A DNA stretch of 64,000 nt from Chitinophagales bacterium (lineage in GTDB: Bacteria > Bacteroidota > Bacteroidia > Chitinophagales > JADIYW01), in contig JACJXT010000011.1 in NCBI GenBank assembly GCA_020636535.1, positions 1,316,812 to 1,380,811 on the forward strand, read 5' to 3'. Of this stretch, positions 1,589 to 60,664 are shown piece by piece. The translations under genes were made by a program, and so were the position numbers. Position 1 is the stretch's first letter. Each line of letters begins with the position of its first letter. A model generated the notes under the pieces. That model was not told where the DNA came from. It made no database searches and worked only from the letters and a program-made list of their open reading frames with translations.

Positions 1589-2854
1589 GGTAATGTACTG
1601 AAAAATAGTTGGTGCATTTGACAAAAATAATGTTTAGCTTTCTCCAGTTAATCTGAAGAGGATAAAAGCACTGGTGGAGACCAACTTTTTAGCAATAGGA
1701 TTAATGTATATACAAAAAATGGGTTGATAGATAACTATCAACCTTTTTCATTTTTTGGTATACTTGATGGCTAAAAAAACTCTATTTTTCATTAGATAAA
1801 TACACATACCATTTGATGAAATTTATTCTATTTTTTAAAGTCAAACCTCTGTGCAAATCAAGATGATTTTTTAGATGGCTAAAATAACCTTCAATTCCAT
1901 TTGTTGTTCTTGGTATTTTTGGATTTTCTAAATAGTGAAACATATTAGGCAATGCTCTTTTTATTGAGAAGTAGGATCTTCTTAGTAGTTTATGAGTATA
2001 CCAATACCTTCTAGTTTCTAAGTTAATAGTCTTTTCATTAAGATAGTCTTTGTGTCTTTCATACCATAGCTTTAACTCTCTTGTCCACCATATTTTATCA
2101 TTCTGTGTTTCTATTTTGAGTAATAGCAAAATATGTTTTCTAAGTTCTTGTCCTGCTATGTGTTTAGGGTATTTAGTAAGCCATAGTAAGCACATTCGTT
2201 GAATATGTACCAAGCATCTTTGTATAACTATATTACTGTCAGTATGTTTAATTGCTTTTAATATACTTTTAGCACCATCTGAGGTAATACTTTCTAATTT
2301 AATGCCTAAGTGTATTAAATTACTTAAATCTTCCTTAATCTCTTCAAAATGCTCTCCATCTGAAAAACGGATAAGTTGTGTATAGCCATCAAGATTATCT
2401 TGATAAGCTATTAAACAGAACTGTGCAAAATAAGTACCGTCCACTCTAAGATTAACTTGTTCTCTTTTTATGATTTTAACCGTGGGCGAACGCTCTAAAA
2501 TTTTATAAAAGGTTCTTTGTAAGGTGTCTTTTGAATAACCACTATCTCTACATAATGTGTTGTAGGTTTGTCTTTCTATTATCCATTTCTTGAACCATAT
2601 GAATCGGTTCTTTATTTTTTGTTCTGGTCTATTCCTTGTGAATAATATGCCACAGTTTTTACACTTAAATCTTTGCTTGTTTTGTTGTTTGCCCCAGCAT
2701 ATTACATCTAAACTACTACAGCTCCAACATCGCTTTTTTTTGCCATTTTTTAACAAAGAAAATATTTTATGAAATACATTTCATAAAATATCTAGTTTAA
2801 CCTTTATTTATAGTACTCTTGATACAATACACCAACTATTTTTCAGTATTATGC
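1589..2854 (-). mobile_element. IS1-family-like insertion sequence (single long transposase ORF)
   Basis: A 19-bp perfect inverted repeat, TACTGAAAAATAGTTGGTG, lies at 1596-1614 and as its reverse complement at 2830-2848. The left terminus starts GGTAATG, as I recall for IS1 ends. The 9-bp direct repeat CCAAAATAT flanks the element at 1580-1588 and 2855-2863, consistent with a target-site duplication. Confidence 0.75.
1782..2756 (-). CDS. transposase with N-terminal zinc ribbon (IS1 / IS1595-like)
   Basis: 324 aa. The N-terminus CWSCSS...GKQQNKQRFKCKNCGILF is a CxxC...CxxC ribbon as in IS1 InsA and IS1595 transposases. Candidate catalytic acidic residues are RVDGTYF and ITSDGAK. The ORF sits between the inverted repeats. 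Confidence 0.75.
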   Translation of the reverse strand: MLKNGKKKRCWSCSSLDVICWGKQQNKQRFKCKNCGILFTRNRPEQKIKNRFIWFKKWIIERQTYNTLCRDSGYSKDTLQRTFYKILERSPTVKIIKREQVNLRVDGTYFAQFCLIAYQDNLDGYTQLIRFSDGEHFEEIKEDLSNLIHLGIKLESITSDGAKSILKAIKHTDSNIVIQRCLVHIQRMCLLWLTKYPKHIAGQELRKHILLLLKIETQNDKIWWTRELKLWYERHKDYLNEKTINLETRRYWYTHKLLRRSYFSIKRALPNMFHYLENPKIPRTTNGIEGYFSHLKNHLDLHRGLTLKNRINFIKWYVYLSNEK

Positions 2855-2899
2855 CCAAAATATAATTTATATAAATAAGTATATGTAATGCTGTATACT

Positions 2900-4198
2900 A
2901 AGACCGTTGCAAGGCAGTGATAAAAAATAATATAGAATAATGCTAGTAGTTATACTATAATTTAGTATATTAGAGTTATGAAAATAAATAAGCCACTCAC
3001 ATTAGCAGACAGTATATGCGATACACGCGTAAAGAAAGTTAAACAAGTTTTCTTTACACAAATTAACCAGTTAATAGATTGGCAACAAATTAGTACAGTA
3101 ATAGATAAGTATTACACCAAAGGCACAAGTGCAACAGGCAAGCCAAGTTATGATGGATTGTTATTATTCAAAATCTGTTTACTACAAACATGGTACGGAC
3201 TAAGTGATTACGAAGTAGAAGACAGAATAAATGACAGCCTCTCCTTTAGTTCTTTCTTAGAATTAACCATAGACCAAACCTCACCAGACCATAGTACCAT
3301 AAGCAGATTTAGAACAGCAATGACAGGAGCAGGAGCATATGATGAATTATTAAAAAGCATAAACAAACAATTAGAACAACATCAAATACTAGTAAAGACA
3401 GGAGCTATAGTAGATGCCAGTATAGTAGAAACACCATTAAAACCCAAAGGAAAAAGTAATTATGAGCTTGAAGCACAACAACAACAACAAGAGCAATCAC
3501 AAGAAGTACCAACAAAGACGGTAGAAAAAAAATACAGTACAAGTGTAGACATAGAAGCAGCATGGATAAAGAGAGGCAAACAACTAAAATATGGCTATAA
3601 GAAACACTATGTAACAGACAACGAAGGATTAGTATTAGGCGTATTAACCACCAAAGCAAGTGTAAATGAAATTAGTAATCTAGAAACGGTATTAAAAACA
3701 GCAGACTTACCAAAAGACATAGCAGTAAAAGCAGACAAAGGTTATCAATCAGAGAAGAATAATGAATTGTTAAAGACATTAGGATTAAAAAATAACATAT
3801 TAAAAAAAGCAACTAAAAATAAAGCATTAACACAAGCCCAAACAGATTATAACAAACTAATAAGCAAAACCAGATATAAAATAGAACGCACTTTTGGCAG
3901 TATAAAAAGATGGTTTAACGGCGGTATAGCAAGATACAGAGGCATAGCCAAGATGCACACACAAAACATAATGGAAGCCATAGCATATAATTTATACAGA
4001 AGTCCAGGGATACTTATGTCCAAAGCATAAAAAAGCGAAGAAAAGTAAAAAAAAAGAGTACTAAACAAACAAAAATCAATCAAAAAAGATAAAAAATAAC
4101 AAAATAAGCCAATAAAACAAACAAATTAAAATATAACAAATATAAACTAATGAATATAATAAATAAAAAACAAAAATTTCACCTTTTGCAACGGTCTC
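2900..4198 (+). mobile_element. IS5-family insertion sequence
   Basis: Terminal inverted repeats AGACCGTTGCAAGG (2901-2914) and CCTTTTGCAACGGTCT (4182-4197). ATACT occurs immediately outside both ends (2895-2899 and 4199-4203) and may be a target duplication. The element encloses a DDE transposase. Confidence 0.8.
2978..4030 (+). CDS. IS5-family DDE transposase
   Basis: 350 aa. The N-terminal block GKPSYDGLLLFKICLLQTWYGLSDYEVEDRINDSLSF...HSTISRFR and the C-terminal YKIERTFGSIKRWF...RYRG are typical of IS4/IS5 DDE_Tnp_1 transposases. Confidence 0.88.
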   Translation: MKINKPLTLADSICDTRVKKVKQVFFTQINQLIDWQQISTVIDKYYTKGTSATGKPSYDGLLLFKICLLQTWYGLSDYEVEDRINDSLSFSSFLELTIDQTSPDHSTISRFRTAMTGAGAYDELLKSINKQLEQHQILVKTGAIVDASIVETPLKPKGKSNYELEAQQQQQEQSQEVPTKTVEKKYSTSVDIEAAWIKRGKQLKYGYKKHYVTDNEGLVLGVLTTKASVNEISNLETVLKTADLPKDIAVKADKGYQSEKNNELLKTLGLKNNILKKATKNKALTQAQTDYNKLISKTRYKIERTFGSIKRWFNGGIARYRGIAKMHTQNIMEAIAYNLYRSPGILMSKA

Positions 4199-4228
4199 AT
4201 ACTTATAATTTTTAGCATTTTTTACCCA

Positions 4229-4245
4229 GTTGTGCAACGGTCACC
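4229..4245. repeat. 17-mer GTTGTGCAACGGTCACC (copy 1), just downstream of the stop of the last cassette gene
   Basis: An identical 17-mer is at 55621-55637. Its reverse complement, GGTGACCGTTGCACAAC, resembles the IS5 terminal repeat GAGACCGTTGCAAAAG. Confidence 0.8.
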
Positions 4246-4264
4246 ATTGTTGCCTGTAGTACTT

Positions 4265-5275
4265 TTATGTAAAATATTCAGTTAATAAATGGCTTGCGTG
4301 CTTGTTTACAAATTTATTCACGGCTTTACTTTCGTGTTTTTCCAATGCGTCATATTCAGCTCGGTTTTCTTTGAGAAAGTCTGTTAGAATATCCTTGTTG
4401 AACATTCCTAATATTCGTCCATAGTCTTTTTTTGGGTTCACTTCGCCAATTTTACTAATCACATTATTCAGTCGATTTGCAGAAATGTACTTGTAAGCCT
4501 CTTGGCAAAGATTTTCCGCCTCTTCGCTCAACTCTTCGTCATCGTGCAAAATCTGTCGCAATATATCTTTGTCGATATAGTTATTGTTTTCAGACCAATC
4601 CTCGTTTTTGTTCTTGATTAGTATTCTCGAACCACTATTAAAGAACAAAGGTCTTACAGGTCGAATAACAACACCTTCGCAAATGTTGCCGTCAATTTCT
4701 GGTAACCCAAATTTAGCAGGTAAAGTACTTTTAAATCTATTTGGATATTCCAAGCATTCGTTTAAACTGCCTTTAAAAAGAGTATCTGCGTAAATAAATC
4801 CAAATTTTTCAAAAAGTTCATTTGTCTTTTGTACATCAAGATATTCCTCGCCATTTATTAGTATGTCAAATGCGAAAAACTCATTTTCTGGGTTGTAATA
4901 AATTCCTCTCTGCACCAATTTAGCATCTTTGCTAATCGGCACATCTTTGTGAGGGTAACCACCACCAATTAATTCGCCAAAAACGGTCAGAGTATTTAAT
5001 TCAAAACCTTTCGAAAGGTTTTGGAATAGTTCAATGACCTTGCTCTTATATATTTCTAGAACGGACTTCGAATTGTAGAAATTTTCGTCATCAGCTATCA
5101 TTTCGGTTCGTTTTGCTGAAGTTACTTCTTTCCCGTTGGTAATAAAGCTCAAATTCGCACCATGAGTTTTTTCCTGAACAATGTAATCTATTTCGGCAAA
5201 TCCTCCGTCAAAAATTGATTGTATAAACTCTTTTTGATATGAGTTTTCTATTGAATTGAACTTCTTAAATTCCAT
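4265..5275 (-). CDS. Rnl2-type ATP-dependent RNA ligase
   Basis: 336 aa. The N-terminus MEFKKFNSIENSY resembles that of T4 Rnl2. Nucleotidyltransferase motifs are present: I QEKTHGAN (the KxxG lysine), III VFGELIGGGY, IV CEGVVIRP, V ILIKNKN. Confidence 0.78.
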   Translation of the reverse strand: MEFKKFNSIENSYQKEFIQSIFDGGFAEIDYIVQEKTHGANLSFITNGKEVTSAKRTEMIADDENFYNSKSVLEIYKSKVIELFQNLSKGFELNTLTVFGELIGGGYPHKDVPISKDAKLVQRGIYYNPENEFFAFDILINGEEYLDVQKTNELFEKFGFIYADTLFKGSLNECLEYPNRFKSTLPAKFGLPEIDGNICEGVVIRPVRPLFFNSGSRILIKNKNEDWSENNNYIDKDILRQILHDDEELSEEAENLCQEAYKYISANRLNNVISKIGEVNPKKDYGRILGMFNKDILTDFLKENRAEYDALEKHESKAVNKFVNKHASHLLTEYFT

Positions 5276-5321
5276 TTTATGCTATTATTCTCAATGTTGG
5301 TTTGTATTATGGGCAACGGCT

Positions 5322-5432
5322 AAAAATTTGTGTTGTGGTTGCGTGAGCAAGACGAACTTAACTTACAACAGAACTATTAATTTATAAAATTACGAATATT
5401 TTCCAAATCTACCAACCATAACACAAATTTTT
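5322..5432. repeat. 20-bp inverted repeat with a 71-nt loop, between the HNH and ligase genes
   Basis: AAAAATTTGTGTTGTGGTTG (5322-5341) pairs with CAACCATAACACAAATTTTT (5413-5432), with one G-T pair on the + strand. GGGCAACGGC (5311-5320) lies next to it, and a TAGATTTG -7-like box lies on the - strand at 5404-5411. Confidence 0.7.
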
Positions 5433-5448
5433 TGTTACCACCAGTTTT

Positions 5449-6378
5449 TTAGTCTGCATATTTATTACTTCGTCCAATGTTACACTCATTGCATAATGTC
5501 CGCAAATTATTAAAAACTGTCAAGCCACCTTTTGAGTGAGGAGTAATGTGGTCGATATGTAATTTTATTCCGTCCTTGGGAGTTTTACCACATATTAAAC
5601 AAGTAGATTTGTCCCGATGAAGGACTTTAAAACGTAATGAAAGAGGAATAGCTCTTTTTGCACGTTGGTCTTTAATTACACTTGGCAACTCTTTTGTCGT
5701 CTCAATATTAGTTTCTAATGATTTGAATTCTGAACTGATATTTTTGAAGGAGGGGAACAACTCAATTTCATATCCCTTATTAGCCATAAAATGTCCTTTT
5801 AAAATTGAGACAACTAAAAAATCATTGAGAAACTTTTCGGCTGAAGTAGTTAAAAACTCGTTAGTTTTCAAATCAAATATTCCAAATAAAATGTCATTGT
5901 TGTCAGTAATGTCGTAACCAAGATTATTGAGAATTTCGGCAAATAAATACTGTTTTAATTTACGATGTGAAATCGCAAGATCTTTATGTCCGTCCAGTTG
6001 CTGAGTAAATGTCAATTTGGAAGTTAGTGAAAGTTGACTTGACTCGTCTTTATGTCGTGATAAATTTATTGTAAAAATCATTCCTGTACCTGAATTAGAT
6101 TCAACATAACTGGCAAGTCTGAAATGTTTATTACCAGAACTTGTTATGTTTTCATAAAGCTGAATATAAAACAAAAGTGTTTGTCCATTTATTACCACTT
6201 GAAATTGAAGCTTAAAGTCGAAAAGGTCTTTGCCAGAAAAGTTTGAAAACAGTCCTGACATTGTCCGCTTTGATTTTAATAGAAAGGAACCAACTTTAAT
6301 AAAGTCGTTTTTTAATGTCACCGTCTTTACTTTATTGGCAAAGTCAGTCAGTTCTTTTTTGGTCAGGTCTGTCGTCAT
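5449..6378 (-). CDS. HNH endonuclease-domain protein with an unrecognised N-terminal domain of about 230 aa
   Basis: The C-terminus CLICG...HIDHITPHSKGG...NLRTLCNECNIGRSN is a beta-beta-alpha-Me (HNH) motif. The track ORF runs to 6510, but its first 44 codons lie in the duplicated GC-rich element. The start is therefore placed at the ATG at 6378 (MTTDLTKKE...). Confidence 0.75.
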   Translation of the reverse strand: MTTDLTKKELTDFANKVKTVTLKNDFIKVGSFLLKSKRTMSGLFSNFSGKDLFDFKLQFQVVINGQTLLFYIQLYENITSSGNKHFRLASYVESNSGTGMIFTINLSRHKDESSQLSLTSKLTFTQQLDGHKDLAISHRKLKQYLFAEILNNLGYDITDNNDILFGIFDLKTNEFLTTSAEKFLNDFLVVSILKGHFMANKGYEIELFPSFKNISSEFKSLETNIETTKELPSVIKDQRAKRAIPLSLRFKVLHRDKSTCLICGKTPKDGIKLHIDHITPHSKGGLTVFNNLRTLCNECNIGRSNKYAD

Positions 6379-6390
6379 AAAAATTGGTGG

Positions 6391-6574
6391 TAACGTAGGG
6401 CGGATTTGCGAAGTCCTGAAGCGTGTAACGAAGTTACACAAAGCGAAAGGATTTTGCAAATCCGCTGATGTGTTGAAGGTCGTAGCGACAGCGAAGACCG
6501 TTCGACGCATCAGCGGATGTAATCCGCCCTACGATGTGCAAAAGACGCAGCGGTAGCGGAGACTTTTGCACATC
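6391..6574 (+). repeat. R4 GC-rich structured element, copy 1 (candidate ncRNA, 5' leader or folded recombination site)
   Basis: Identical to 58982-59165 except for the paired positions 6396 and 6531. A 12-bp closing helix, CGTAGGGCGGAT/ATCCGCCCTACG, encloses two long arms, followed by the 12-bp hairpin GATGTGCAAAAG/CTTTTGCACATC. Confidence 0.9.
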
Positions 6575-6575
6575 A

Positions 6576-6611
6576 CCCAAATATACGCAATAAAATAACT
6601 TGCGTATATTT
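6576..6611. repeat. mini-palindrome related to the R2 (CCCAAAT...) MITE ends; may also act as a + strand terminator
   Basis: CCCAAATATACGCAA-N9-TTGCGTATATTT followed by TTTTTT. The - strand reads TATATTTG (6578-6585), a Bacteroidetes -7-like box facing the R4 element and the HNH gene. Confidence 0.5.
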
Positions 6612-6761: not shown

Positions 6762-7020
6762 ATAGCATGAAGATGACTTCATACTATACTGAAGATGGCT
6801 TCATACTATACTGAAGATGGCTTCATACTATACTGAAGATGACTTCATACTATACTGAAGATGCTTCATGCTATACTGAAGATGCTTCATACTATACTGA
6901 AGATGACTTCATACTATACTGAAGATGACTTCATACTATACTGAAGATGACTTCATACTATACTGAAGATGACTTCATACCATACTGAAGATAACTTCAT
7001 ACTATACTGAAGACAACTCA
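6762..7020. repeat. tandem array of 11 full units of 21-22 bp (plus partial ends); each unit is a small hairpin
   Basis: The unit GAAGATGACTTCATACTATACT starts at 6769, 6791, 6813, 6835, 6857, 6878, 6899, 6921, 6943, 6965 and 6987. CTTCA-N8-TGAAG forms a hairpin across unit junctions. There are only point variants and no spacers. Confidence 0.95.
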
Positions 7021-7087: not shown

Positions 7088-7232
7088 GTGTTTTTTGATT
7101 TAGGAGATACTTTGTTCGTTTCCTCATTCAGTATAGGCAGTTGGTGGTAAAGAGTTGCTCTAAGTAAAATGTAATTTAATAAAACCGTCTATTGCAAGAT
7201 TTTGTGAAGCATGAATAAAATTGTGGCAATCT
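7088..7232. repeat. R1-family intergenic hairpin repeat
   Basis: GTGTTTTTTGATTTAGGAGATACTTTGTTCGTTTCCTCATTCAGTATAGGCAG ... AAACCGTCTATTGCAAGATTTTGTGAAG...AATTGTGGCAATCT. The two arms are imperfect inverted repeats. It matches 55295-55440 and 55518-55575. Confidence 0.7.
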
Positions 7233-7288
7233 CCAACTTCAGAATGCTAACAATAGATTTAAGTTAATAGCTATTCTTTTCTACAACC

Positions 7289-8302
7289 TTAATCTAAAAA
7301 TACAGATAGTATTTTACTTATTTGTTCGCTTTCTATTAAAAATCCATCGTGTCCGTAAGGTGAGTCGATAACTACAAACTGACTGTGTGGTATAAGTGTT
7401 GCTAGTAATCTTTGTTCTTCTAGTGGAAATAAATAATCTGACTCAATACCTAATACTAGTGTTTTGCATTTTACGCGTTCTAATACTTCTAATGCTGTAC
7501 CTCTACTTCTTGTAATGTTATGATTATCCATGGCTTTACTTAAATACCAATACGAATAAGCATTAAATCGCTTAGCTAATTTTTCGCCTTGATATCGTTG
7601 ATAAGAACAAGCATTGAAATCTTCTAATTTGCTATTATCATCATCGGCCTGTGTTTTATTATAAGCCACATAGTTTCGATAGGAGATGAGTCCTACACTT
7701 CTGGCAGCTTTCATACCATTTAATCCACCATCTGGTCGATTGTCAAAAAACGAAGCATCTGCTTCTATTGCCATTCGCTGACTTTCATTAAAGGCAATTC
7801 CCCAAGGTGAGTGCTGAATGTTTGTAGCTCCTAATAAAATATGATCAAAGATATTCGGTTCTTCAATCACCCATTCCAATAATTGTTGTCCACCCATAGA
7901 AAATCCACAAGCAAAATGAATTTTATCAATACCAAGATGTGTTCGCAATTTCATTAAAGAATGTACCATATCTCTAACCGTTACAATAGGAAAATCTAAG
8001 TAATATGGTTCATTGGTATTTGGATTTATACTTAATGGTCCTGTAGAACCATAGCAAGAACCCAACATATTAGCACATACAATAAAATATTTTTCTGGAT
8101 TTAAAAACAATCCATCGCCAACCATACCTGGCCACCATTCTGTTGGATTGGAATTAGCAGAAAAAGCATGACATATCCATACTACATTAGATTTATCTTC
8201 ATTGAGTTTTCCAAAGGTATGATATGCCAATGCCAACTGCTTAAACTCGTAGCCAGATTCTGTAATCAGTGGCTCATTGATGGTTAAAATTTTTGGTTCC
8301 AA
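7289..8302 (-). CDS. metX: homoserine O-acetyltransferase
   Basis: 337 aa alpha/beta hydrolase with the nucleophile elbow GFSMGG. It has typical MetX length and N-terminus, and is adjacent to and translationally abutting metY. Confidence 0.9.
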   Translation of the reverse strand: MEPKILTINEPLITESGYEFKQLALAYHTFGKLNEDKSNVVWICHAFSANSNPTEWWPGMVGDGLFLNPEKYFIVCANMLGSCYGSTGPLSINPNTNEPYYLDFPIVTVRDMVHSLMKLRTHLGIDKIHFACGFSMGGQQLLEWVIEEPNIFDHILLGATNIQHSPWGIAFNESQRMAIEADASFFDNRPDGGLNGMKAARSVGLISYRNYVAYNKTQADDDNSKLEDFNACSYQRYQGEKLAKRFNAYSYWYLSKAMDNHNITRSRGTALEVLERVKCKTLVLGIESDYLFPLEEQRLLATLIPHSQFVVIDSPYGHDGFLIESEQISKILSVFLD

Positions 8303-9745
<1,443 letters not shown>

Positions 9746-54377: not shown

Positions 54378-55286
54378 CGATTGTTTTTTAGCTTGCTTAG
54401 TTAAGTAATTTAAAACACCTAAAGAAATTATAAGTATTTGATTTATATTGTATTAGTTGCATATTTTAGTAACTTAATAAGTGCGTAGTACTTTAACTTT
54501 ATTAGAAATGATAGAAAATTTATAAAATACAGCGTAGCTGTATCACCTTTAATATCTGTTTAAATTTAGATTGTTGATAAACGGTATTTTATAATAGCTT
54601 TTAACTCGAACTCAGGTTAATATAAGCCGAGCCACTTAAAATCCAAACCAAGTTAAGTTAAGAACTAAGCTGGCTTATGTTTTTGCTAAATTGAGTAATA
54701 AAAATACTAAACTATGGTACTTTATAAGTGTACTCGGTCGCTTTTTAAACTCAGTCAGTTAAGTAATAATATAAGCCGAGCCACTTAAAAACCAAACCAA
54801 GTTAGGTTAATAACTAAGCTGGCTTATGTTTTTGCTAAATTGAGTAATAAAAATGCTAAGCTATGGTACTTTGTAAGTGTACTCGGTCGCTTTTTAACTC
54901 AGTTAGTTAAGTAATAATATAAGTCGAGCTACTTAAAAACCAAACCAAGTTAGGGTAATAACCAAGCTGGCTTATGTTTAAAGTGGCTATGGGTACTTAT
55001 ACAAGTGGAAGAAGGGGACTTAAAAGATAAACTTAGTTGAGTTAAAACATTAATGTAGTTTAGGTTTAAAGTGGTATCCTGTACTTCTATAAGTGGGTTG
55101 GTATACTTAAAACCTAAACCAAGTTAGGGTAAAAACTAACTCAGCTTATGTTTTAAGTGGGGTGAGCTACTTAAAAACTAAGTAAAACTGACAAAATAGG
55201 TGGCTACCCCCACTTCGGAAGGGGGTTAGCGTACTTCGGAAGTGGAGTAAGTGACTAAATTTGTGCCAATATGGCAGTTTTTTTTT
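54378..55286 (+). repeat. R3 modular repeat region B (candidate long structured ncRNA), with three units of about 149 bp in tandem
   Basis: Units start with TATAAG(C/T)CGAGC at 54621, 54770 and 54918. The modules and 3' module (AAACTGACAAAATAGGTGGCTACCCCC...GTACTTCGGAAGTGGAGTAA) are the same as in region A. It ends with TGCCA-ATA-TGGCA plus T9 (55278-55286). An R2 fragment is inserted at about 54478-54550. Confidence 0.8.
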
Positions 55287-55294
55287 ATTTTTCG

Positions 55295-55440
55295 TTTTAG
55301 TAAGGAGATACTTCGTTTGTTCCTCACTTAGTATAGACGGTTGGTTAAAAATGGCTCTCGATACTATAAGTAAAATGTAATTGATAATTAGACCGTCTAT
55401 TGCGAAATTTTGAGAGGAACGAACAAAATTGTGGCAATCT
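55295..55440. repeat. R1-family intergenic hairpin repeat
   Basis: TTTTAGTAAGGAGATACTTCGTTTGTTCCTCACTTAGTATAGACGG ... GACCGTCTATTGCGAAATTTTGAGAGGAACGAACAAAATTGTGGCAATCT. The arms are mutually inverted. Confidence 0.7.
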
Positions 55441-55517
55441 GAATCGTTAGACTGCTATAAAGTATATTGCTTCGCTACTTTCATCCGTTCGCAAAGACGA
55501 GGATTATTTTAGTTGTT

Positions 55518-55620
55518 GTGTTTTTGATTTAGGAGATACTTCGTTCGTTCCTCACTCAGTATAGACGGTTAGTTGATGGTGAGACAGAGTTCTCTATCGA
55601 GTAACTCTGATGGGTGAGAA
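55518..55620. repeat. R1-family partial copy plus the CAGAGTT...AACTCTG hairpin
   Basis: GTGTTTTTGATTTAGGAGATACTTCGTTCGTTCCTCACTCAGTATAGACGG, then the hairpin CAGAGTTCTCTATCGAGTAACTCTG (55585-55609) and GATGGGTGAGAA, as at 1498-1538. Confidence 0.65.
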
Positions 55621-55637
55621 GTTGTGCAACGGTCACC
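55621..55637. repeat. 17-mer GTTGTGCAACGGTCACC (copy 2), downstream of the methyltransferase stop
   Basis: Identical to 4229-4245. It lies 33 nt from the stop at 55671; copy 1 lies 19 nt from the stop at 4265. Confidence 0.8.
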
Positions 55638-55670
55638 GATGTTAGGCACAGTCGTTTTTTTCGTTAAGTT

Positions 55671-57656
55671 TTACACAAGTTCTAATTCAATACTTTCAAT
55701 TTGTTCTTTGGATGCTTGTCGCAATTCAAATGCTTTTTTCATTTTATTACTAATGTCCTCAATTGTTTTTTGTTCTGGCAAATGAATAATGATGTTTGCC
55801 AAGTCAATGTCTGAAACATTTGGAATGGCTGCACCTGTACGATACATAAACATTTGCTTCAAAAACATTTCCGATTTCAAATAATAAAGCAAATAATATT
55901 TGTCAATTTGAAAGTTACGCAAAACTCTAAAACCATTGGTACAAATACTTCCTGCAAACTCGTCTATTACAAAGGCTGTTGCGTGTTTTCGTGTTCCTAC
56001 GGAATTTCCTGCAATCGCCGTAATGATGTCACCTTGTTCAATTTCATAACTTGCTCTACTTGGCAATTCGTGAACTTGGTGAGTTGTTGAATTGATAATT
56101 TCGTATGAATGAGTATTGATGTCCGAAAGTTCAACATATTCAACAGTCAAATTCGGGTCTTTTAGTTTTCTGCTTTTTATTTTCACGATTTCACAAATAT
56201 CTCCCAAGCGAACTGTTTTTGTGTTATTCAAATTAGAAAACATTTTACGATTTTCGGGCGAATAAAAATCAAAGTCAAAACGTCCATTAAGTTCGTTGAA
56301 TTGGATTGAAAATGCGTTGTCATTTTCCACATTTTTACCTTTTTGAAATGATTTGTATGCTTCAATAATTGTCGAAAAATCTTCGTCTAAAATTGGCTGT
56401 CCATTTTTGTCTTTTATGATTTGTCCGAATTTGTCTTTTTGGTAGAGTGGTGTTCCATTTTTGTTGCCTTGATAACCTAATTTAGTAACTCTACCAAAGA
56501 AAATAGGATATTGACGTTCTTCGTTTTTGCTGTCTTTTTCTAAAAATAACAACGAAGTTTTTACGCCTGTGCCGTATGGAATAAAAGTTTCTTGTGGTAA
56601 ATTCACAATAGCCAAAACTTTTGCTTTTTGCTTGATATAATAACGCAAATATTCCAAAGACGGATTTTCAAAATTTCCGTTTGGCAAAACGATTGCCATT
56701 CTTCCGCCTTCTTTCAAAAGTTGTAAGCAACGTTCAATAAAGAGAATTTCGGCATTTTGATTGGCATAAACTGTTTTAGATTGATAAAATTCCTTTTCAT
56801 GATTTCCCCACTTATGACCCAAGTCAAATTTTGACAAAACAGACGATTGTGTAATTTTTGCACCGAATGGCGGATTAGTTAAAATCAAATCAAAACCATT
56901 TTTTTGACCTAATGAAAGTTTAATACTGTCTAAATCTTCTAATGAATTAGTGCAAAGAATGTTTGTTTTTCCGTTAGCTTCCAAAAGCAATTTCATTTTG
57001 GCAATTCGGGCAATACTTCGATTGATGTCTAAGCCGAAAATGTTTTGTGAAACGGTTTTTGAAGTGTTCAAATTTTGATTGTTTATTTGTAGATATTTCA
57101 AAGCCGACATCAAAAAACCGCCACTTCCACAAGCTGGGTCAATAATTGTTTCGCTTGTTTTTGGTTGCATAATTGCAACGCAAAAATCAATGACAGGCTC
57201 TGGTGTAAAAAATTGTCCTCGTCCGTCTTTCTCGTGGTGCGATAAAAACTTTTGAAAAGCCAATCCTTTTGCGTCTTGCGATGAGTCAAGCAATGAAATT
57301 CCCTGCAATTTATTGACTGTAAAACCAAGAGCGTTTTGACTTAGTTTTATACGGTCGTCCGTATCAAAAATGTCTTTATATTCTTTTTGTGTTTTATCAA
57401 ATAAAGCAGCTATTCGGTCGGAAAATGAAGAAACATTTTTACCCAATTTTATATCATTCCATTCTTCAGAAGAAACGGAAAACTGTTTTAGTTTTTCGTT
57501 TTCGTCAAAAATTTTGATGAACAAAATTTTTACAAACTCCTCCAAAGTTTGTTGCGGAGACAAGCCGTCATTGGCATAAATATAGTCGTGAATTTCCTCA
57601 AACCTTTTTAAAAGGTTATCTTCTTTGGAAAGTTCTATGTCAAATAAAGAATTCAT
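55671..57656 (-). CDS. N6-adenine DNA methyltransferase with a fused C-terminal target-recognition (HsdS-like) domain
   Basis: 661 aa. It has an HsdM-N-like N-terminus (FVKILFIKIFDE), SAM motif I IIDPACGSGGFL and catalytic motif IV LTNPPFG. The C-terminal 190 aa or so starts LGDICEIVK, like a type I S half-domain. Confidence 0.88.
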   Translation of the reverse strand: MNSLFDIELSKEDNLLKRFEEIHDYIYANDGLSPQQTLEEFVKILFIKIFDENEKLKQFSVSSEEWNDIKLGKNVSSFSDRIAALFDKTQKEYKDIFDTDDRIKLSQNALGFTVNKLQGISLLDSSQDAKGLAFQKFLSHHEKDGRGQFFTPEPVIDFCVAIMQPKTSETIIDPACGSGGFLMSALKYLQINNQNLNTSKTVSQNIFGLDINRSIARIAKMKLLLEANGKTNILCTNSLEDLDSIKLSLGQKNGFDLILTNPPFGAKITQSSVLSKFDLGHKWGNHEKEFYQSKTVYANQNAEILFIERCLQLLKEGGRMAIVLPNGNFENPSLEYLRYYIKQKAKVLAIVNLPQETFIPYGTGVKTSLLFLEKDSKNEERQYPIFFGRVTKLGYQGNKNGTPLYQKDKFGQIIKDKNGQPILDEDFSTIIEAYKSFQKGKNVENDNAFSIQFNELNGRFDFDFYSPENRKMFSNLNNTKTVRLGDICEIVKIKSRKLKDPNLTVEYVELSDINTHSYEIINSTTHQVHELPSRASYEIEQGDIITAIAGNSVGTRKHATAFVIDEFAGSICTNGFRVLRNFQIDKYYLLYYLKSEMFLKQMFMYRTGAAIPNVSDIDLANIIIHLPEQKTIEDISNKMKKAFELRQASKEQIESIELELV

Positions 57657-57705
57657 ATATTACACATTTGTGTCAAAAATAAAACACAAATGTGTAATAC
57701 GCAAA

Positions 57706-58653
57706 TTATCTTCCGTCTAATTGACTTTTATCTAGTTTTCTATACTTCGGTTTTGTTTCTTGAATACACAAATCAAGGTCGTCATACCAAGGTTTTAAAA
57801 GTTTGTGTCTTTGGAAATTGTCTTTTGCAGTCAAAATATCAATCGTATAATTTTGTTGCAAATGATTGGGAGACTTGGCTTGATGATTCAAGTCGGTACT
57901 ATTTACAAAAACCAATTCGTGTTTTCCTGTTTTCAAAAACAAATCCACACATAAAATATTAAATTCAGAAACCAAAGGTCCTGTGCTTTTAATTTTTGTT
58001 TTTGTATCTATTCTTGTCGATGGCATATGCGTTTGCAATAAACGAATTGGTGCGGTCAAATCCCAATAAGCATTTTCGTTAAAATCTTCTTCTTTGAATG
58101 ATTTTAACCATTTAGCAATGTCCTCTTTTGAGTTCCAAAGTCCTGTTAAATCAGGAACTCCTGCACCCGGATTTTCTTTACTCCAACGAAATTTCGGAAA
58201 GTTACCCGCATTTTTCTGTTCCCAATTGACTTTTGCTTTTTCGTAATTTCGACTGCCCGAATTGTAAATGCTTTCAATTTGCTTTTTTCTCTCAATTGAA
58301 TGTTTATTGAGTAATGTCAAACAAGAAGAAATTTTTGTTAAACCGCTTCTTTTTTCGGAATTAGATTTTACTCCTTTACACTCCACTACTAACCATTCAT
58401 CTTTAGTTGACCCAATTTTACGAATATAAAAATCCCCTCTTGCATCATCACTTTTTGCATTATTTCCTCCTTCGGGTTTTTCTTTTATTCTTAACGCTTC
58501 GTAACCAATAGAGTTAGCATATTCTTTAAAAAGTTCTTCTCCAAGATTTCCTAAAATGTAGCCTTCTGCTCCTGGACTTTTGATAAGTACTTCCAAAAAT
58601 TTGTTTTCATCAATACCGAATTTGCGATTGATATAGTTTTTTAATAAATCCAT
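57706..58653 (-). CDS. putative PD-(D/E)xK restriction endonuclease
   Basis: 315 aa. GDFYIR...(17 aa)...VVECKG fits D...ExK. It sits between an XRE controller-like gene and the methyltransferase. Confidence 0.6.
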   Translation of the reverse strand: MDLLKNYINRKFGIDENKFLEVLIKSPGAEGYILGNLGEELFKEYANSIGYEALRIKEKPEGGNNAKSDDARGDFYIRKIGSTKDEWLVVECKGVKSNSEKRSGLTKISSCLTLLNKHSIERKKQIESIYNSGSRNYEKAKVNWEQKNAGNFPKFRWSKENPGAGVPDLTGLWNSKEDIAKWLKSFKEEDFNENAYWDLTAPIRLLQTHMPSTRIDTKTKIKSTGPLVSEFNILCVDLFLKTGKHELVFVNSTDLNHQAKSPNHLQQNYTIDILTAKDNFQRHKLLKPWYDDLDLCIQETKPKYRKLDKSQLDGR

Positions 58654-58655
58654 TA

Positions 58656-58862
58656 TTAGTCTTTAAATAGTTCTGTAATTGGAACATTTAAAGCAATGGC
58701 AAGTTTTTCTGCAATAACGATTGATACGTTCCTTTCGCCTTTTTCAATGCTTGGAATGTATGTCCTGTCGATTTCAGCAATTAATGCAAGTTTCTCTTGT
58801 GATAGACCTTTTTCTAATCGCAGACGTTTTAAGTTATTGCCAAATTTTTGCTTAATGTCCAT
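58656..58862 (-). CDS. XRE-family HTH regulator (controller C-protein-like)
   Basis: Start set at the ATG at 58862 (MDIKQKFGNNLKRLRLEKGLSQEKLA...), giving 68 aa. It has a classic HTH_3 pattern, and its stop abuts the endonuclease start. Confidence 0.75.
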   Translation of the reverse strand: MDIKQKFGNNLKRLRLEKGLSQEKLALIAEIDRTYIPSIEKGERNVSIVIAEKLAIALNVPITELFKD

Positions 58863-58981
58863 AGCACAAAAGTCTCTATTTGTAGAAAACTGTACAACGG
58901 ACAATCATCAACTTTTTTGCTTTGTTTGGATTTATTTTTGAAAAGATTGAATTTTATGCGGTTCGTTCATACGATTGTGCA

Positions 58982-59165
58982 TAACGGAGGGCGGATTTGC
59001 GAAGTCCTGAAGCGTGTAACGAAGTTACACAAAGCGAAAGGATTTTGCAAATCCGCTGATGTGTTGAAGGTCGTAGCGACAGCGAAGACCGTTCGACGCA
59101 TCAGCGGATGTAATCCGCCCTCCGATGTGCAAAAGACGCAGCGGTAGCGGAGACTTTTGCACATC
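58982..59165 (+). repeat. R4 GC-rich structured element, copy 2
   Basis: Identical to 6391-6574 except G58987 (T in copy 1) and C59122 (A in copy 1), which pair with each other in the closing helix. Confidence 0.9.
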
Positions 59166-59290
59166 GGTCTCGGGTATGAAACGTAGGGCATTTCGGAGCC
59201 GCGTACTTGTCCACCGAGACTAAGCTTGCTTAGAACCCGAAACTTGCGGAATCCACTGTCCGCCCTATGTTTTATACTGTATCGTCCTAA
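59166..59290 (+). other. GC-rich extension of R4 copy 2 (absent from copy 1), possibly the rest of the same structured element
   Basis: GGTCTCGG...CCGAGAC (8/7 bp), CTAAGC-TT-GCTTAG, GTAGGGC...GCCCTAT and GGAGCCGC...GCGGAATCC can pair, and some pairings cross (pseudoknot-like). It ends at an A-run. The same position in copy 1 holds the mini-palindrome 6576-6611. Confidence 0.4.
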
Positions 59291-59348: not shown

Positions 59349-60257
59349 CTAAAATAGGTTTACAGTTTGTTTTCTTTGGTAATAATTTTTCCATTTTTTT
59401 TCTATTTTAATTGTTTGATTTTGATGTACTAAACTCGGTACTAAATTTCCTATACTCATATGTGGTCTATCTTCATTATATAGTTTTATTACTTGGTCTA
59501 ATAATATCTTGGCTTCTGTTATATTTCTTAGATCATAATGGTCTAAATATTCTTCTTTCAAGATACCATTTACTCTCTCTGCTATTGCATTTTCTAATGG
59601 ATCACCATTCTCTGTCATGCTAACATCTATGCTGTTTTGCTGTAGCAGATTTACATATTTATGACTGCAATATTGTACACCTCTATCGCTGTGATGTATA
59701 AGTGAGCTATTGAGCTTTGTATCTAATGGTAAAAGTGCCATTTTTAATGCTTTTAAACTACTGTCTGCATCAAGTGTTTCAGATAAATGATAACCTACTA
59801 TTTTATGACTGTAAGCATCTGTAATTAAGCTAATATACACATATCCTATATTTATCTTCCAATATGTAATATCACTGACATACAATTGATTAGGTTTTGT
59901 TGGAGTTAAGTCTTTTATTAAGTTTGGATACTTCTTTAGCCAATGGTGCGACTGAGTTGTTTTAATATTGCTGCGTCTTTTTCGTATCAACAAATTATAT
60001 TGTGATAGCAAGTTAAACAAAGCATCTCTACCCATTTTTATTTGGTGTGATAACATAAATGCTTCTAACATTATATACAATTTTCTAGTACCTATTCTTG
60101 GATGATATTGACGGATTTTTAATACCTCTTTTATTATTAATTCCTGTTGAAGTGCTGTGTTAACAGCTTGGTTGAAGTGCTGATAATATGCCTGTCGTGT
60201 AATACCAAACAATCGGCATAGCTTTGCGAATCCTATATATTGATGTCGTGCTTTCAT
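59349..60257 (-). CDS. IS3-family transposase OrfB (DDE integrase core)
   Basis: 302 aa. rve-type blocks YVSDITYW, HSDRGVQY and ENAIAERVNGILKEE (D, D, E) are present. Confidence 0.88.
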   Translation of the reverse strand: MKARHQYIGFAKLCRLFGITRQAYYQHFNQAVNTALQQELIIKEVLKIRQYHPRIGTRKLYIMLEAFMLSHQIKMGRDALFNLLSQYNLLIRKRRSNIKTTQSHHWLKKYPNLIKDLTPTKPNQLYVSDITYWKINIGYVYISLITDAYSHKIVGYHLSETLDADSSLKALKMALLPLDTKLNSSLIHHSDRGVQYCSHKYVNLLQQNSIDVSMTENGDPLENAIAERVNGILKEEYLDHYDLRNITEAKILLDQVIKLYNEDRPHMSIGNLVPSLVHQNQTIKIEKKWKNYYQRKQTVNLF

Positions 60258-60664
60258 TTCTTGGATTGTTTGGTGTTTGACTTTTTTCTAATACTAATTT
60301 TTAATTCTTTTTCAGCTACTTCTATCATGGTGTCTAATGCTGTGGCTCGTAATTCTGAGTTTAATAATGCTTTTTCTAATTGCTCAATTCGTTGTTTTAA
60401 TTCAATGTTTTCTAGTGGTTCATTGCTCTTTATCATAAATATTTCTTTGTTTGGTAATTTACGCCATTTAGGTACCATATCATATCCTAATTGACGCATC
60501 CATTTGAGTAACGAACCATGTTCCTCTTTATGTCCTGTATATTTTTCCCATATATCTCTCTTCTTACAGCCTGTTCTAAGATATTCTTCTATAATATACT
60601 TCCGTTCCTCTATAGTAAAATCTCTTGGTGATTTTTGTCCTAAAATAATTTGTCTTTTTTTCAT
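60254..60664 (-). CDS. IS3-family transposase OrfA (HTH)
   Basis: 136 aa with an N-terminal HTH region and a leucine-zipper-like C-terminal half. It ends just after the slippery site. Confidence 0.85.
   Translation of the reverse strand: MKKRQIILGQKSPRDFTIEERKYIIEEYLRTGCKKRDIWEKYTGHKEEHGSLLKWMRQLGYDMVPKWRKLPNKEIFMIKSNEPLENIELKQRIEQLEKALLNSELRATALDTMIEVAEKELKISIRKKSNTKQSKK
60281..60287 (-). promoter_or_regulatory. programmed -1 ribosomal frameshift site (A AAA AAG) joining OrfA and OrfB
   Basis: The - strand reads AGA AAA AAG in the OrfA frame, 24 nt before the OrfA stop. OrfB is open in the -1 frame. Confidence 0.6.

Follow-up and report, generated by a model that had tools for sequence, protein, structure and literature searches.

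An Rnl2-type RNA ligase gene and an HNH nuclease gene as probable neighbouring integron-type cassettes in a Chitinophagales genome

Two single-gene units side by side

A 64-kb stretch of the genome of a Chitinophagales bacterium (contig JACJXT010000011.1; GC content ~31%), here called the window, contains genes for an Rnl2-type RNA ligase and for an HNH protein, both on the minus strand and 173 nucleotides (nt) apart. These genes are probably two separately mobile, single-gene cassettes of the integron type that lie side by side, one with a solitary HNH nuclease and the other with a stand-alone ligase. An initial annotation of the window had placed them in one two-gene cassette and had offered two explanations, a conflict module (a nuclease with an RNA-sealing partner) or two independently captured cassettes. 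The second was supported, since each open reading frame (ORF) is bounded by attC-like sites with complementary R' and R'' boxes, and the two-gene cassette is better described as two one-gene cassettes. As cassette elements they are of an ordinary kind in an unusual phylum, carrying known enzyme families and one uncharacterised domain.

The region is delimited by ilvA (47-1303) on one side and metX/metY (7289-9598) on the other, and between them are found two insertion sequences (ISs), the ligase and HNH genes, a GC-rich structured element and a 22-bp tandem repeat. The exact window sequence is present in activated-sludge and wastewater metagenomes, and its genes and their nearest relatives suggest a Flavobacteriia-like representative of the Bacteroidota. 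On the minus strand, within ~4229-6574, the order would be the structured element, the HNH cassette with its own 130-nt attC-like site, and the ligase cassette with a site split by two IS insertions. The features of this interval are the following (aa, amino acids):

6389-6574, minus strand: structured element, attC-like, branched and GC-rich, with CCCTAC-GTTA at its end; it precedes the HNH cassette
6379-6394, minus strand: G|TTACCACCAATTTTT, the 5' limit of the HNH cassette, which at 15/16 positions is the reverse complement of the box (5434-5449) that immediately follows the HNH stop codon
5449-6378, minus strand: intact ORF of the HNH protein, 309 aa, from Pfam and homologue alignment
5311-5449, minus strand: attC-like site of the HNH cassette, with R'' TGGTGGTAAC (5443-5434), 20-bp stem, 71-nt loop and R' GTTGCCC (5317-5311)
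5276-5317, minus strand: 5' leader of the ligase cassette, boundary G|TTGCCCAT with the G at 5317, where homology with other ligase cassettes begins
4265-5275, minus strand: intact, full-length ORF of the Rnl2-type RNA ligase, 336 aa, from Pfam, PHROG, PDB and motif matches
4229-4254, minus strand: 3' box of the ligase cassette, with R'' GGCAAC (4254-4249), a 10-nt spacer and the 17-mer GGTGACCGTTGCACAAC

The landmarks given in the initial annotation were all recovered, namely the ligase with its full set of motifs, the C-terminal HNH motif, the inverted repeat with a 20-bp stem between the genes and, on the flanks, an IS5-type transposase (2978-4030, plus strand), the structured element (fold span 6385-6580) and the 17-mer (4229-4245), which occurs a second time at 55621-55637. 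The arms of the inverted repeat (5322-5341 and 5413-5432) are 20 nt long and 95% complementary, enclose a loop of 71 nt, and fold as DNA with z = -3.35; the structured element folds with z = -12. If the units are cassettes, the 20-bp stem belongs to the attC-like site of the HNH cassette, and the structured element is the attC-like site that precedes it.

Cassette boundaries

Past each ORF lies an imperfect palindrome, with ..AAC at its start and GTT.. at its end, which folds into a hairpin with bulges. The box just past the HNH stop codon, read as its reverse complement, gives the 5' end of the HNH cassette, G|TTACCACCA, and the ligase cassette shows the same relation between its own box and its 5' end, G|TTGCCCAT. 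Around the HNH ORF this takes the form of a 16-nt inverted repeat (15/16), of which one arm, GTTACCACCAATTTTT, immediately precedes the ATG and the other, AAAAACTGGTGGTAAC, immediately follows the stop codon. Recurrence of a unit's own first 7-10 bases as the reverse complement just past the stop codon would be expected of a circular cassette with one attC; in the integrated form, the TT... half of the cassette's R' box would stand at the start and R''...G at the end. Both units begin at the G|TT of the preceding site, and they would be promoter-poor, single-gene cassettes. The characters of integron cassettes that were found are palindromic sites with AAC/GTT cores, the G|TT boundary and the presence of the same cassette in different contexts. 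A regular-expression scan for attC ends was discarded as too unspecific, given that 7/9 matches arise by chance in AT-rich DNA. The sites vary so widely in length and inner structure that they cannot be aligned reliably.

In the ligase cassette, the 3' half of the site was not found next to the gene, which adjoins only the 5' half (R'' and 17-mer); the hairpin shared with the other array of the window lies past the IS pair. The arrangement of R'', spacer and 17-mer was also found after a restriction-modification (R-M) cassette in that second array, described below, and after a ligase cassette in another genome (L044). At the R-M locus, the hairpin CTCACCCATCAGAGTT... and the repeat ATTGCCACAATTTTGTTC... 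follow the 17-mer directly, and at the ligase locus they are located at ~1505-1555 and ~1400, respectively, beyond both ISs:

2895-4198, plus strand: IS5-family IS of 1304 bp with its transposase at 2978-4030, limits defined by public contigs
1589-2855, minus strand: second multi-copy IS, adjoining the first, ORF at 1782-2756 with weak Transposase_mut/IS66 matches

The IS5-family element, whose terminal inverted repeats (TIRs) are at about 2899-2930 and 4180-4205, interrupts the array 3' of the ligase gene. Its empty-site junction (2894 joined to 4199) was found in three metagenome runs, and its depth is ~10x that of the flanks; the second IS is represented by metagenome contigs of 1266-1267 bp at high depth. 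The IS insertions thus cut the array at a time when the cassettes were already in place.

Ligase and HNH cassettes in other genomes

Loci of both families (88 ligase and 36 HNH-family loci, given here as L plus a number) were collected, with flanks of up to 10 kb, from public genomes and metagenomes and compared by tblastn. In the window and in L004, L007, L042 and L044, homology between ligase cassettes starts exactly at (G)TTRCCCA, 34-43 nt before the ATG, and the DNA upstream is unrelated in all five contexts. A box GGGYAAC, complementary to the start of the ligase cassette, lies 6-7 nt past the ligase stop codon. The R' and R'' boxes of ligase cassettes covary, reading GTTACCCAT/ATGGGTAAC in L004, GTTGCCCAC/GTGGGCAAC in L045 and L048, GTTGGTGGC/GCCACCAAC in L051 and GTTAGCGGT/ACCGCTAAC in L052. 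Perfect 9/9 matches between boxes at fixed positions were found at 5/72 ligase loci, compared with 9/5112 mismatched control pairs. The HNH cassette of the window has the boxes GTTACCACCA/TGGTGGTAAC, and those of other Bacteroidota have GTTATCAGT/ACTGATAAC (L003) and GTTAGTGGC/GCCACTAAC (L014, L017). Long same-strand arrays of unrelated small genes with attC-like sites between them are present in L004, L009 and L026.

The two genes were not found together at any of these loci (0/124), and in the clade of the window neither family has a conserved neighbour. The closest ligase relatives (89, 86 and 84% identity) adjoin a DUF1573 gene, a HigB/HigA-like pair and a DUF4440 gene, and the closest HNH relative with context (L002, 82% identity) lies between gldM and an unrelated gene. 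When neighbouring proteins were clustered all against all, no cluster apart from the HNH protein itself was common to more than 3/36 HNH loci, and a Pfam survey of 121 neighbours at HNH loci gave a heterogeneous set of families.

L002 looks like a one-cassette insertion. Its HNH gene, downstream of gldM, lies between two copies of a terminator-like hairpin of 35 nt (3275-3320 and 4385-4425). GTTAGC is found before the ORF and GGGCCAAC after it.

The Rnl2-type RNA ligase

The ligase is by sequence a full Rnl2 homologue: none of the catalytic residues of T4 Rnl2 is missing, and the C-terminal domain is that of Rnl2. Its Pfam matches are RNA_ligase (2.5e-22, aa 30-221) and T4_Rnl2_C (PF18043; 9.4e-21, aa 248-328), PHROG 548 'RNA ligase' matches over the full length (1e-64), and T4 Rnl2 itself (PDB 2hvq) matches over aa 3-304 (5e-31). 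The nucleotidyltransferase motifs I, III, IIIa, IV and V read KTHGAN, FGELIGGGY, FFAFDI, EGVVIRP and LIKNKN in the translation. Residues K36, H38, G39, N41, R56, E101, F136, D137, E200, G201, K221 and K223 are invariant among 17 homologues, and Lys36 of KTHGAN is the predicted adenylylation site. The score against TIGR02307 is below the equivalog cut-off (186.3 vs 197.15 bits), so by sequence the protein is an Rnl2-type homologue and not the curated equivalog. T4 Rnl2 seals 3'-OH/5'-PO4 nicks in duplex RNA (PMC3884662), and by analogy the ligase is most likely a stand-alone sealer of the same kind of nick.

More than 520 clusters make the ligase family a common one in Bacteroidota, and relatives at 31-42% identity were found in large phage contigs. 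A distant clade from gut and rumen metagenomes (44-48% identity) has a metallophosphoesterase gene directly downstream of the ligase at 25/88 loci, which suggests a two-enzyme RNA-repair operon. In this clade (L072-L123) the ligase is not cassette-borne and has a conserved hairpin upstream, the downstream gene encoding a calcineurin-like metallophosphoesterase. The circulation of an Rnl2-type ligase as a stand-alone cassette raises the question of which RNA damage is repaired without a healing enzyme.

The HNH protein and its N-terminal domain

The start codon of the HNH gene was placed at the ATG at 6378 and not at 6510, because homologues align from residue 1. The protein is composed of an N-terminal domain of ~215 aa, a linker and a C-terminal Cys4-zinc HNH nuclease domain. 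Its Pfam matches are confined to aa 260-305 (HNH, PF01844, 3.6e-10; HNH_5, PF14279, 9.3e-11), with nothing upstream, and only the last ~70 residues have any match. The beta-beta-alpha-metal motif has its catalytic His and Asn residues and a Cys4 zinc site: at least 90% of 40 homologues share D276, H277, N291, N300, C260, C263, C296 and C299. The fold of the HNH domain matches the Gme HNH nuclease 4h9d (Foldseek), and in PHROGs this domain is nearest to phage HNH families.

The N-terminal region had been left unassigned in the initial annotation, and it stayed so here: there was no Pfam match, and a PDB sequence profile search matched the HNH part only. The structure search that had been proposed as a check was run with Foldseek and AlphaFold models, and it also matched only the HNH domain, both with the full-length model against PDB and BFVD and with the N-terminal domain alone against PDB (best E 0.38, template modelling score 0.2). 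The predicted local distance difference test (pLDDT) score is 80 for the full-length protein and 88.8 for the N-terminal domain alone, which has a predicted template modelling score (pTM) of 0.88 and is predicted to fold as a seven-stranded antiparallel sheet with two long helices. A full HMMER scan of 1.84 billion representatives detected the domain in just 89 clusters, either alone (about 200-215 aa) or in fusion with HNH/HNH_5 or with another family, HNH_2. With a confident fold, no solved structural relative and recurrent fusion to two HNH families, it is a candidate new reader of DNA targets or modifications.

The complete HNH family, with 61 clusters in a set of 5.8 billion proteins, is rare and patchily distributed, in Bacteroidota, Bacillota, Myxococcota and one viral contig. 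Some relatives are located in defence islands, with GmrSD, a second HNH, PDDEXK and an AAA_15/21 ATPase nearby in L001, and AAA_21 and RloB in L003. A cognate methyltransferase gene, as a type II R-M system would have, does not adjoin the HNH gene in the window, and no such family is among the 25 most frequent neighbour families of the survey described above. The protein is most likely a solitary DNA nuclease with a restriction- or defence-like role, as predicted from its domains and contexts. The choice of target, DNA that is modified or foreign in some other way, would fall to the N-terminal domain, and cleavage to the Cys4-zinc HNH module. Because no methyltransferase partner is conserved, the protein would be a defence nuclease of type IV (modification-dependent) or one that spares self DNA in another way. 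The architecture and the solitary occurrence fit a type IV restriction enzyme; the N-terminal domain resembles no known reader.

Two tandem genes of 209 aa each that encode the N-terminal domain only were found in L140 (5001-6455), within an island that contains CopG, SLATT, two TIR proteins, TGT, Ogg-HhH and QueC, possibly for 7-deazaguanine DNA modification. In a wastewater metatranscriptome (X19), a 234-nt contig is identical to 6082-6315 within the HNH gene, a weak hint of transcription that could also come from DNA carry-over.

Points against the cassette reading

Several observations weigh against the reading as integron cassettes. No integron integrase was detected by tblastn (IntI1 query, E<=10) in the window or beside any ligase locus; the query did detect tyrosine recombinases in L009, L026 and L035. 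Without an integrase in the window, the locus is classed as CALIN-like only, CALINs being cassette clusters without an integrase (review), and the mobilising recombinase would lie outside the window. Complete Bacteroidetes genomes are almost without integrons (IntegronFinder 2.0 paper), and Bacteroidota are listed among the integron-bearing phyla (the same review). Of the RYYYAAC/GTTRRRY consensus, the R boxes match the AAC/GTT core alone. In the window the ligase cassette has a short or truncated site of its own, and extrahelical bases are not obvious in the 20-bp stem of the HNH site, whereas the site of L004 has bulged bases.

The population data weigh on both sides. Against the reading, both cassettes are together in every sample that holds them; these samples probably represent one lineage, so a local functional link is conceivable. 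In its favour, a single unitig of 2196 bp in metagenome run X1 (also X2) corresponds exactly to 4231-6426, with both cassettes and with its ends within the flanking sites. Four other unitigs of X1 (also X2), at a depth of 21-42, join 4244/4245/4252 to 6391/6392 or 6568/6574. They omit both cassettes, with or without the structured element, and their breakpoints are in or near the R''/R' boxes. On the other hand, canonical attC x attC excision was considered for the four junctions and rejected, as a G|TT crossover would have given other sequences. The junctions may represent alleles or, given that the structured element and the IS5-side flank are multi-copy, paralogous loci.

The tyrosine recombinases of L009 (6120-7301) and L026 (11039-11899) have 32% and 29% identity to IntI1. 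They were rejected as IntI, lacking the IntI-specific insert (the additional domain) and scoring below the TIGR02249 cut-off. The recombinase gene of L009 stands at the head of an array, all on one strand, in which an HNH-family cassette is included and the attC-like sites, of ~130 nt, are conserved; that of L026 (Chryseobacterium carnipullorum) lies among cassettes. We would put forward only as a tentative and rather doubtful proposal that the Bacteroidota arrays constitute an integron-like system of their own, with an Xer-type recombinase without the IntI additional domain and with long branched sites, which stocks single-gene defence nucleases such as the HNH protein with its new N-terminal fold.

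Alternative explanations

It is unlikely that the mobile units are something other than integron cassettes, either inserts bounded by TIRs or inserts in a repeated scaffold (structured element, 17-mer and hairpin), moved by ISs, by an Xer-like recombinase or by hairpin-directed illegitimate recombination. The lack of a detected IntI, the skipping junctions without the canonical G|TT product, the position of both window arrays in the same repeated scaffold next to ISs, the GACCGTTGCA common to the IS5 terminal repeat and the 17-mer, and the Xer/IntI-like recombinases without the IntI extra domain in or beside the L009 and L026 arrays would all be in keeping with such movement. However, a plain TIR transposon would not leave a GTT-ending imperfect palindrome after every ORF, nor would it make the first bases of a unit part of the preceding palindrome, and the arrays are multi-cassette, same-strand, promoter-poor and integron-like, with invariant AAC/GTT cores. 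An improbable alternative of a different kind, and the main one for the HNH protein, is that it is a selfish homing-type endonuclease without a defence or restriction role, whose spread would explain the variable contexts. It is a single gene without a conserved partner, patchy across the groups named above, with an HNH domain nearest to phage families, and in L002 it is flanked by a duplicated hairpin; but it is not inserted in genes, introns or inteins, several of its neighbourhoods are those of defence islands (L001, L003 and the paralogues with the N-terminal domain only in L140), and in Bacteroidota its mobility is accounted for by the attC-like sites.

A functional conflict module, with the HNH protein as effector and the ligase as repair enzyme for RNA damage, partner or antidote, co-transcribed from a promoter upstream of the structured element, is very improbable. 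The genes adjoin on one strand, an intrinsic terminator is not predicted in the 173 nt between them, they form one unitig in metagenomes and are skipped as a block, and the structured element has close upstream of it, at 6585, a -7 box of the Bacteroidetes type (TAnnTTTG); scans for sigma-70 promoters and terminators gave background levels. Against this, the two families were never together among the 124 loci, a finding that the initial annotation had itself named as one that would refute the module, and close relatives of both proteins (82% for the HNH protein, 84-89% for the ligase) are without the partner. Moreover, an attC-like site with its own R'/R'' logic lies between the genes, and HNH cuts DNA while Rnl2 seals RNA, leaving no evident common substrate. 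PADLOC has no model for the ligase, which had no match, and gave only domain-level matches for the HNH protein (REase_II, PtuB and DpdF models) and no system, in agreement with the earlier remark that the pairing was not recognised as a named defence system; NCBIfam gave no system-level assignment for the pair either. A module is therefore not supported, and the two genes are adjacent by accident of the order of capture and do not form a defence system. This removes a false lead, a new defence pair of HNH protein and RNA ligase, and illustrates that adjacency in cassette arrays can mimic an operon.

A second array and other repeats in the window

A second attC-like array is present on the minus strand at 55614-59275. 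It opens with an IS3-family element (orfA 60254-60664, orfB 59349-60257), and a GC-rich hairpin element (59185-59275) lies between this IS and a second copy of the structured element (58985-59165). The two copies are identical over ~184 nt save for one compensatory pair (GTAGGG..CCCTAC vs GGAGGG..CCCTCC), and identity stops exactly after CGTTA, with a different cassette downstream. This is a three-gene cassette, probably an R-M unit of C protein, restriction endonuclease and methyltransferase:

58656-58862, minus strand: HTH_3 protein
57706-58653, minus strand: 315-aa protein without assignment
55671-57656, minus strand: N6_Mtase and Methylase_S

The boxes of the R-M cassette, GTTATGCAC and GTGCCTAAC, match at 8/9 positions, and the array ends with GCCTAAC and the 17-mer. 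Tandem repeats of ~120 bp are found in the intergenic region downstream of the R-M cassette (54640-55200).

The hairpin CTCACCCATCAGAGTT..AACTCTGATGG and the ATTGCCACAATTTTGTTC repeat family form a scaffold common to both cassette arrays. The repeat family, composed of ATTGCCACAATTTTGTTC...CAAAATTTCGCAATAGACGGT and CTATACTGAGTGAGGAACGAACGAAGTATCTCC, is located at ~1340-1420, ~7090-7240 and ~55300-55600 and flanks both arrays. Between metX and the first structured element there are ~11 tandem copies (6768-7014) of the 22-bp unit TGAAGATGACTTCATACTATAC, a short palindrome whose copy number differs among metagenome contigs (joint 6775 to 6994). The terminal repeat of the IS5-family element, GAGACCGTTGCAA, has GACCGTTGCA in common with the 17-mer of the attC-like sites; from this shared sequence, sites bearing the 17-mer may be a target of the IS. 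An Rfam scan of the whole window at the gathering threshold returned one tRNA only and no match for the structured elements or for an attC family.

Comparison with known systems

The ligase is similar to T4 RNA ligase 2 (gp24.1; 2hvq, 1s68) in that both domains align, all nucleotidyltransferase motifs are present and the C-terminal domain is the Rnl2-specific one. It differs in being bacterial and cassette-borne, without phage context and without an adjoining healing enzyme. With the repair systems of T4 Rnl1/Pnkp against PrrC and of the Pnkp/Hen1 type it shares an RNA ligase that is able in principle to reverse ribotoxin damage. In contrast to these, the clade of the window ligase has no kinase/phosphatase partner and no anticodon nuclease, and unlike in the Rnl1/Pnkp-PrrC case the neighbouring nuclease in the window is an HNH protein, with a DNA-cutting fold, which is not conserved with the ligase.

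A parallel in layout for the HNH protein is found in solitary HNH restriction enzymes such as E. coli McrA (PDB 6ghc; type IV), also a single gene with a reader-type domain followed by a Cys4-zinc HNH domain, no conserved methyltransferase and a context of defence islands. The McrA HNH domain is matched by the profile of the HNH family (E 0.0028), whereas the N-terminal domain has no sequence or fold likeness to McrA or to any PDB entry. Sirona and Nemetona, HNH-related single-gene anti-phage integron cassettes (10.1101/2024.07.02.601686), were found and tested in Vibrio arrays. They and the HNH gene are alike by description in being small, streamlined, cassette-borne nuclease genes, and the likeness extends to the R-M unit in the second array.

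Compared with integrons as a whole, the arrays differ in the absence of IntI, in R boxes that fit only the core, in some sites that are long and branched (184 nt) and in their host, a low-GC Bacteroidota of activated sludge. It is noteworthy that attC-type arrays without a canonical integrase are abundant in Bacteroidota, and that Flavobacteriia-like genomes commonly have attC-bounded cassettes, nuclease and R-M cassettes among them, although complete genomes of the phylum are considered nearly devoid of integrons. As in integron cassettes, the units are single ORFs in one orientation with short leaders, AAC...GTT palindromes, a G|TT boundary and a 5' end complementary to their own R''; the same cassette recurs in different arrays, and ISs are found in and around them.

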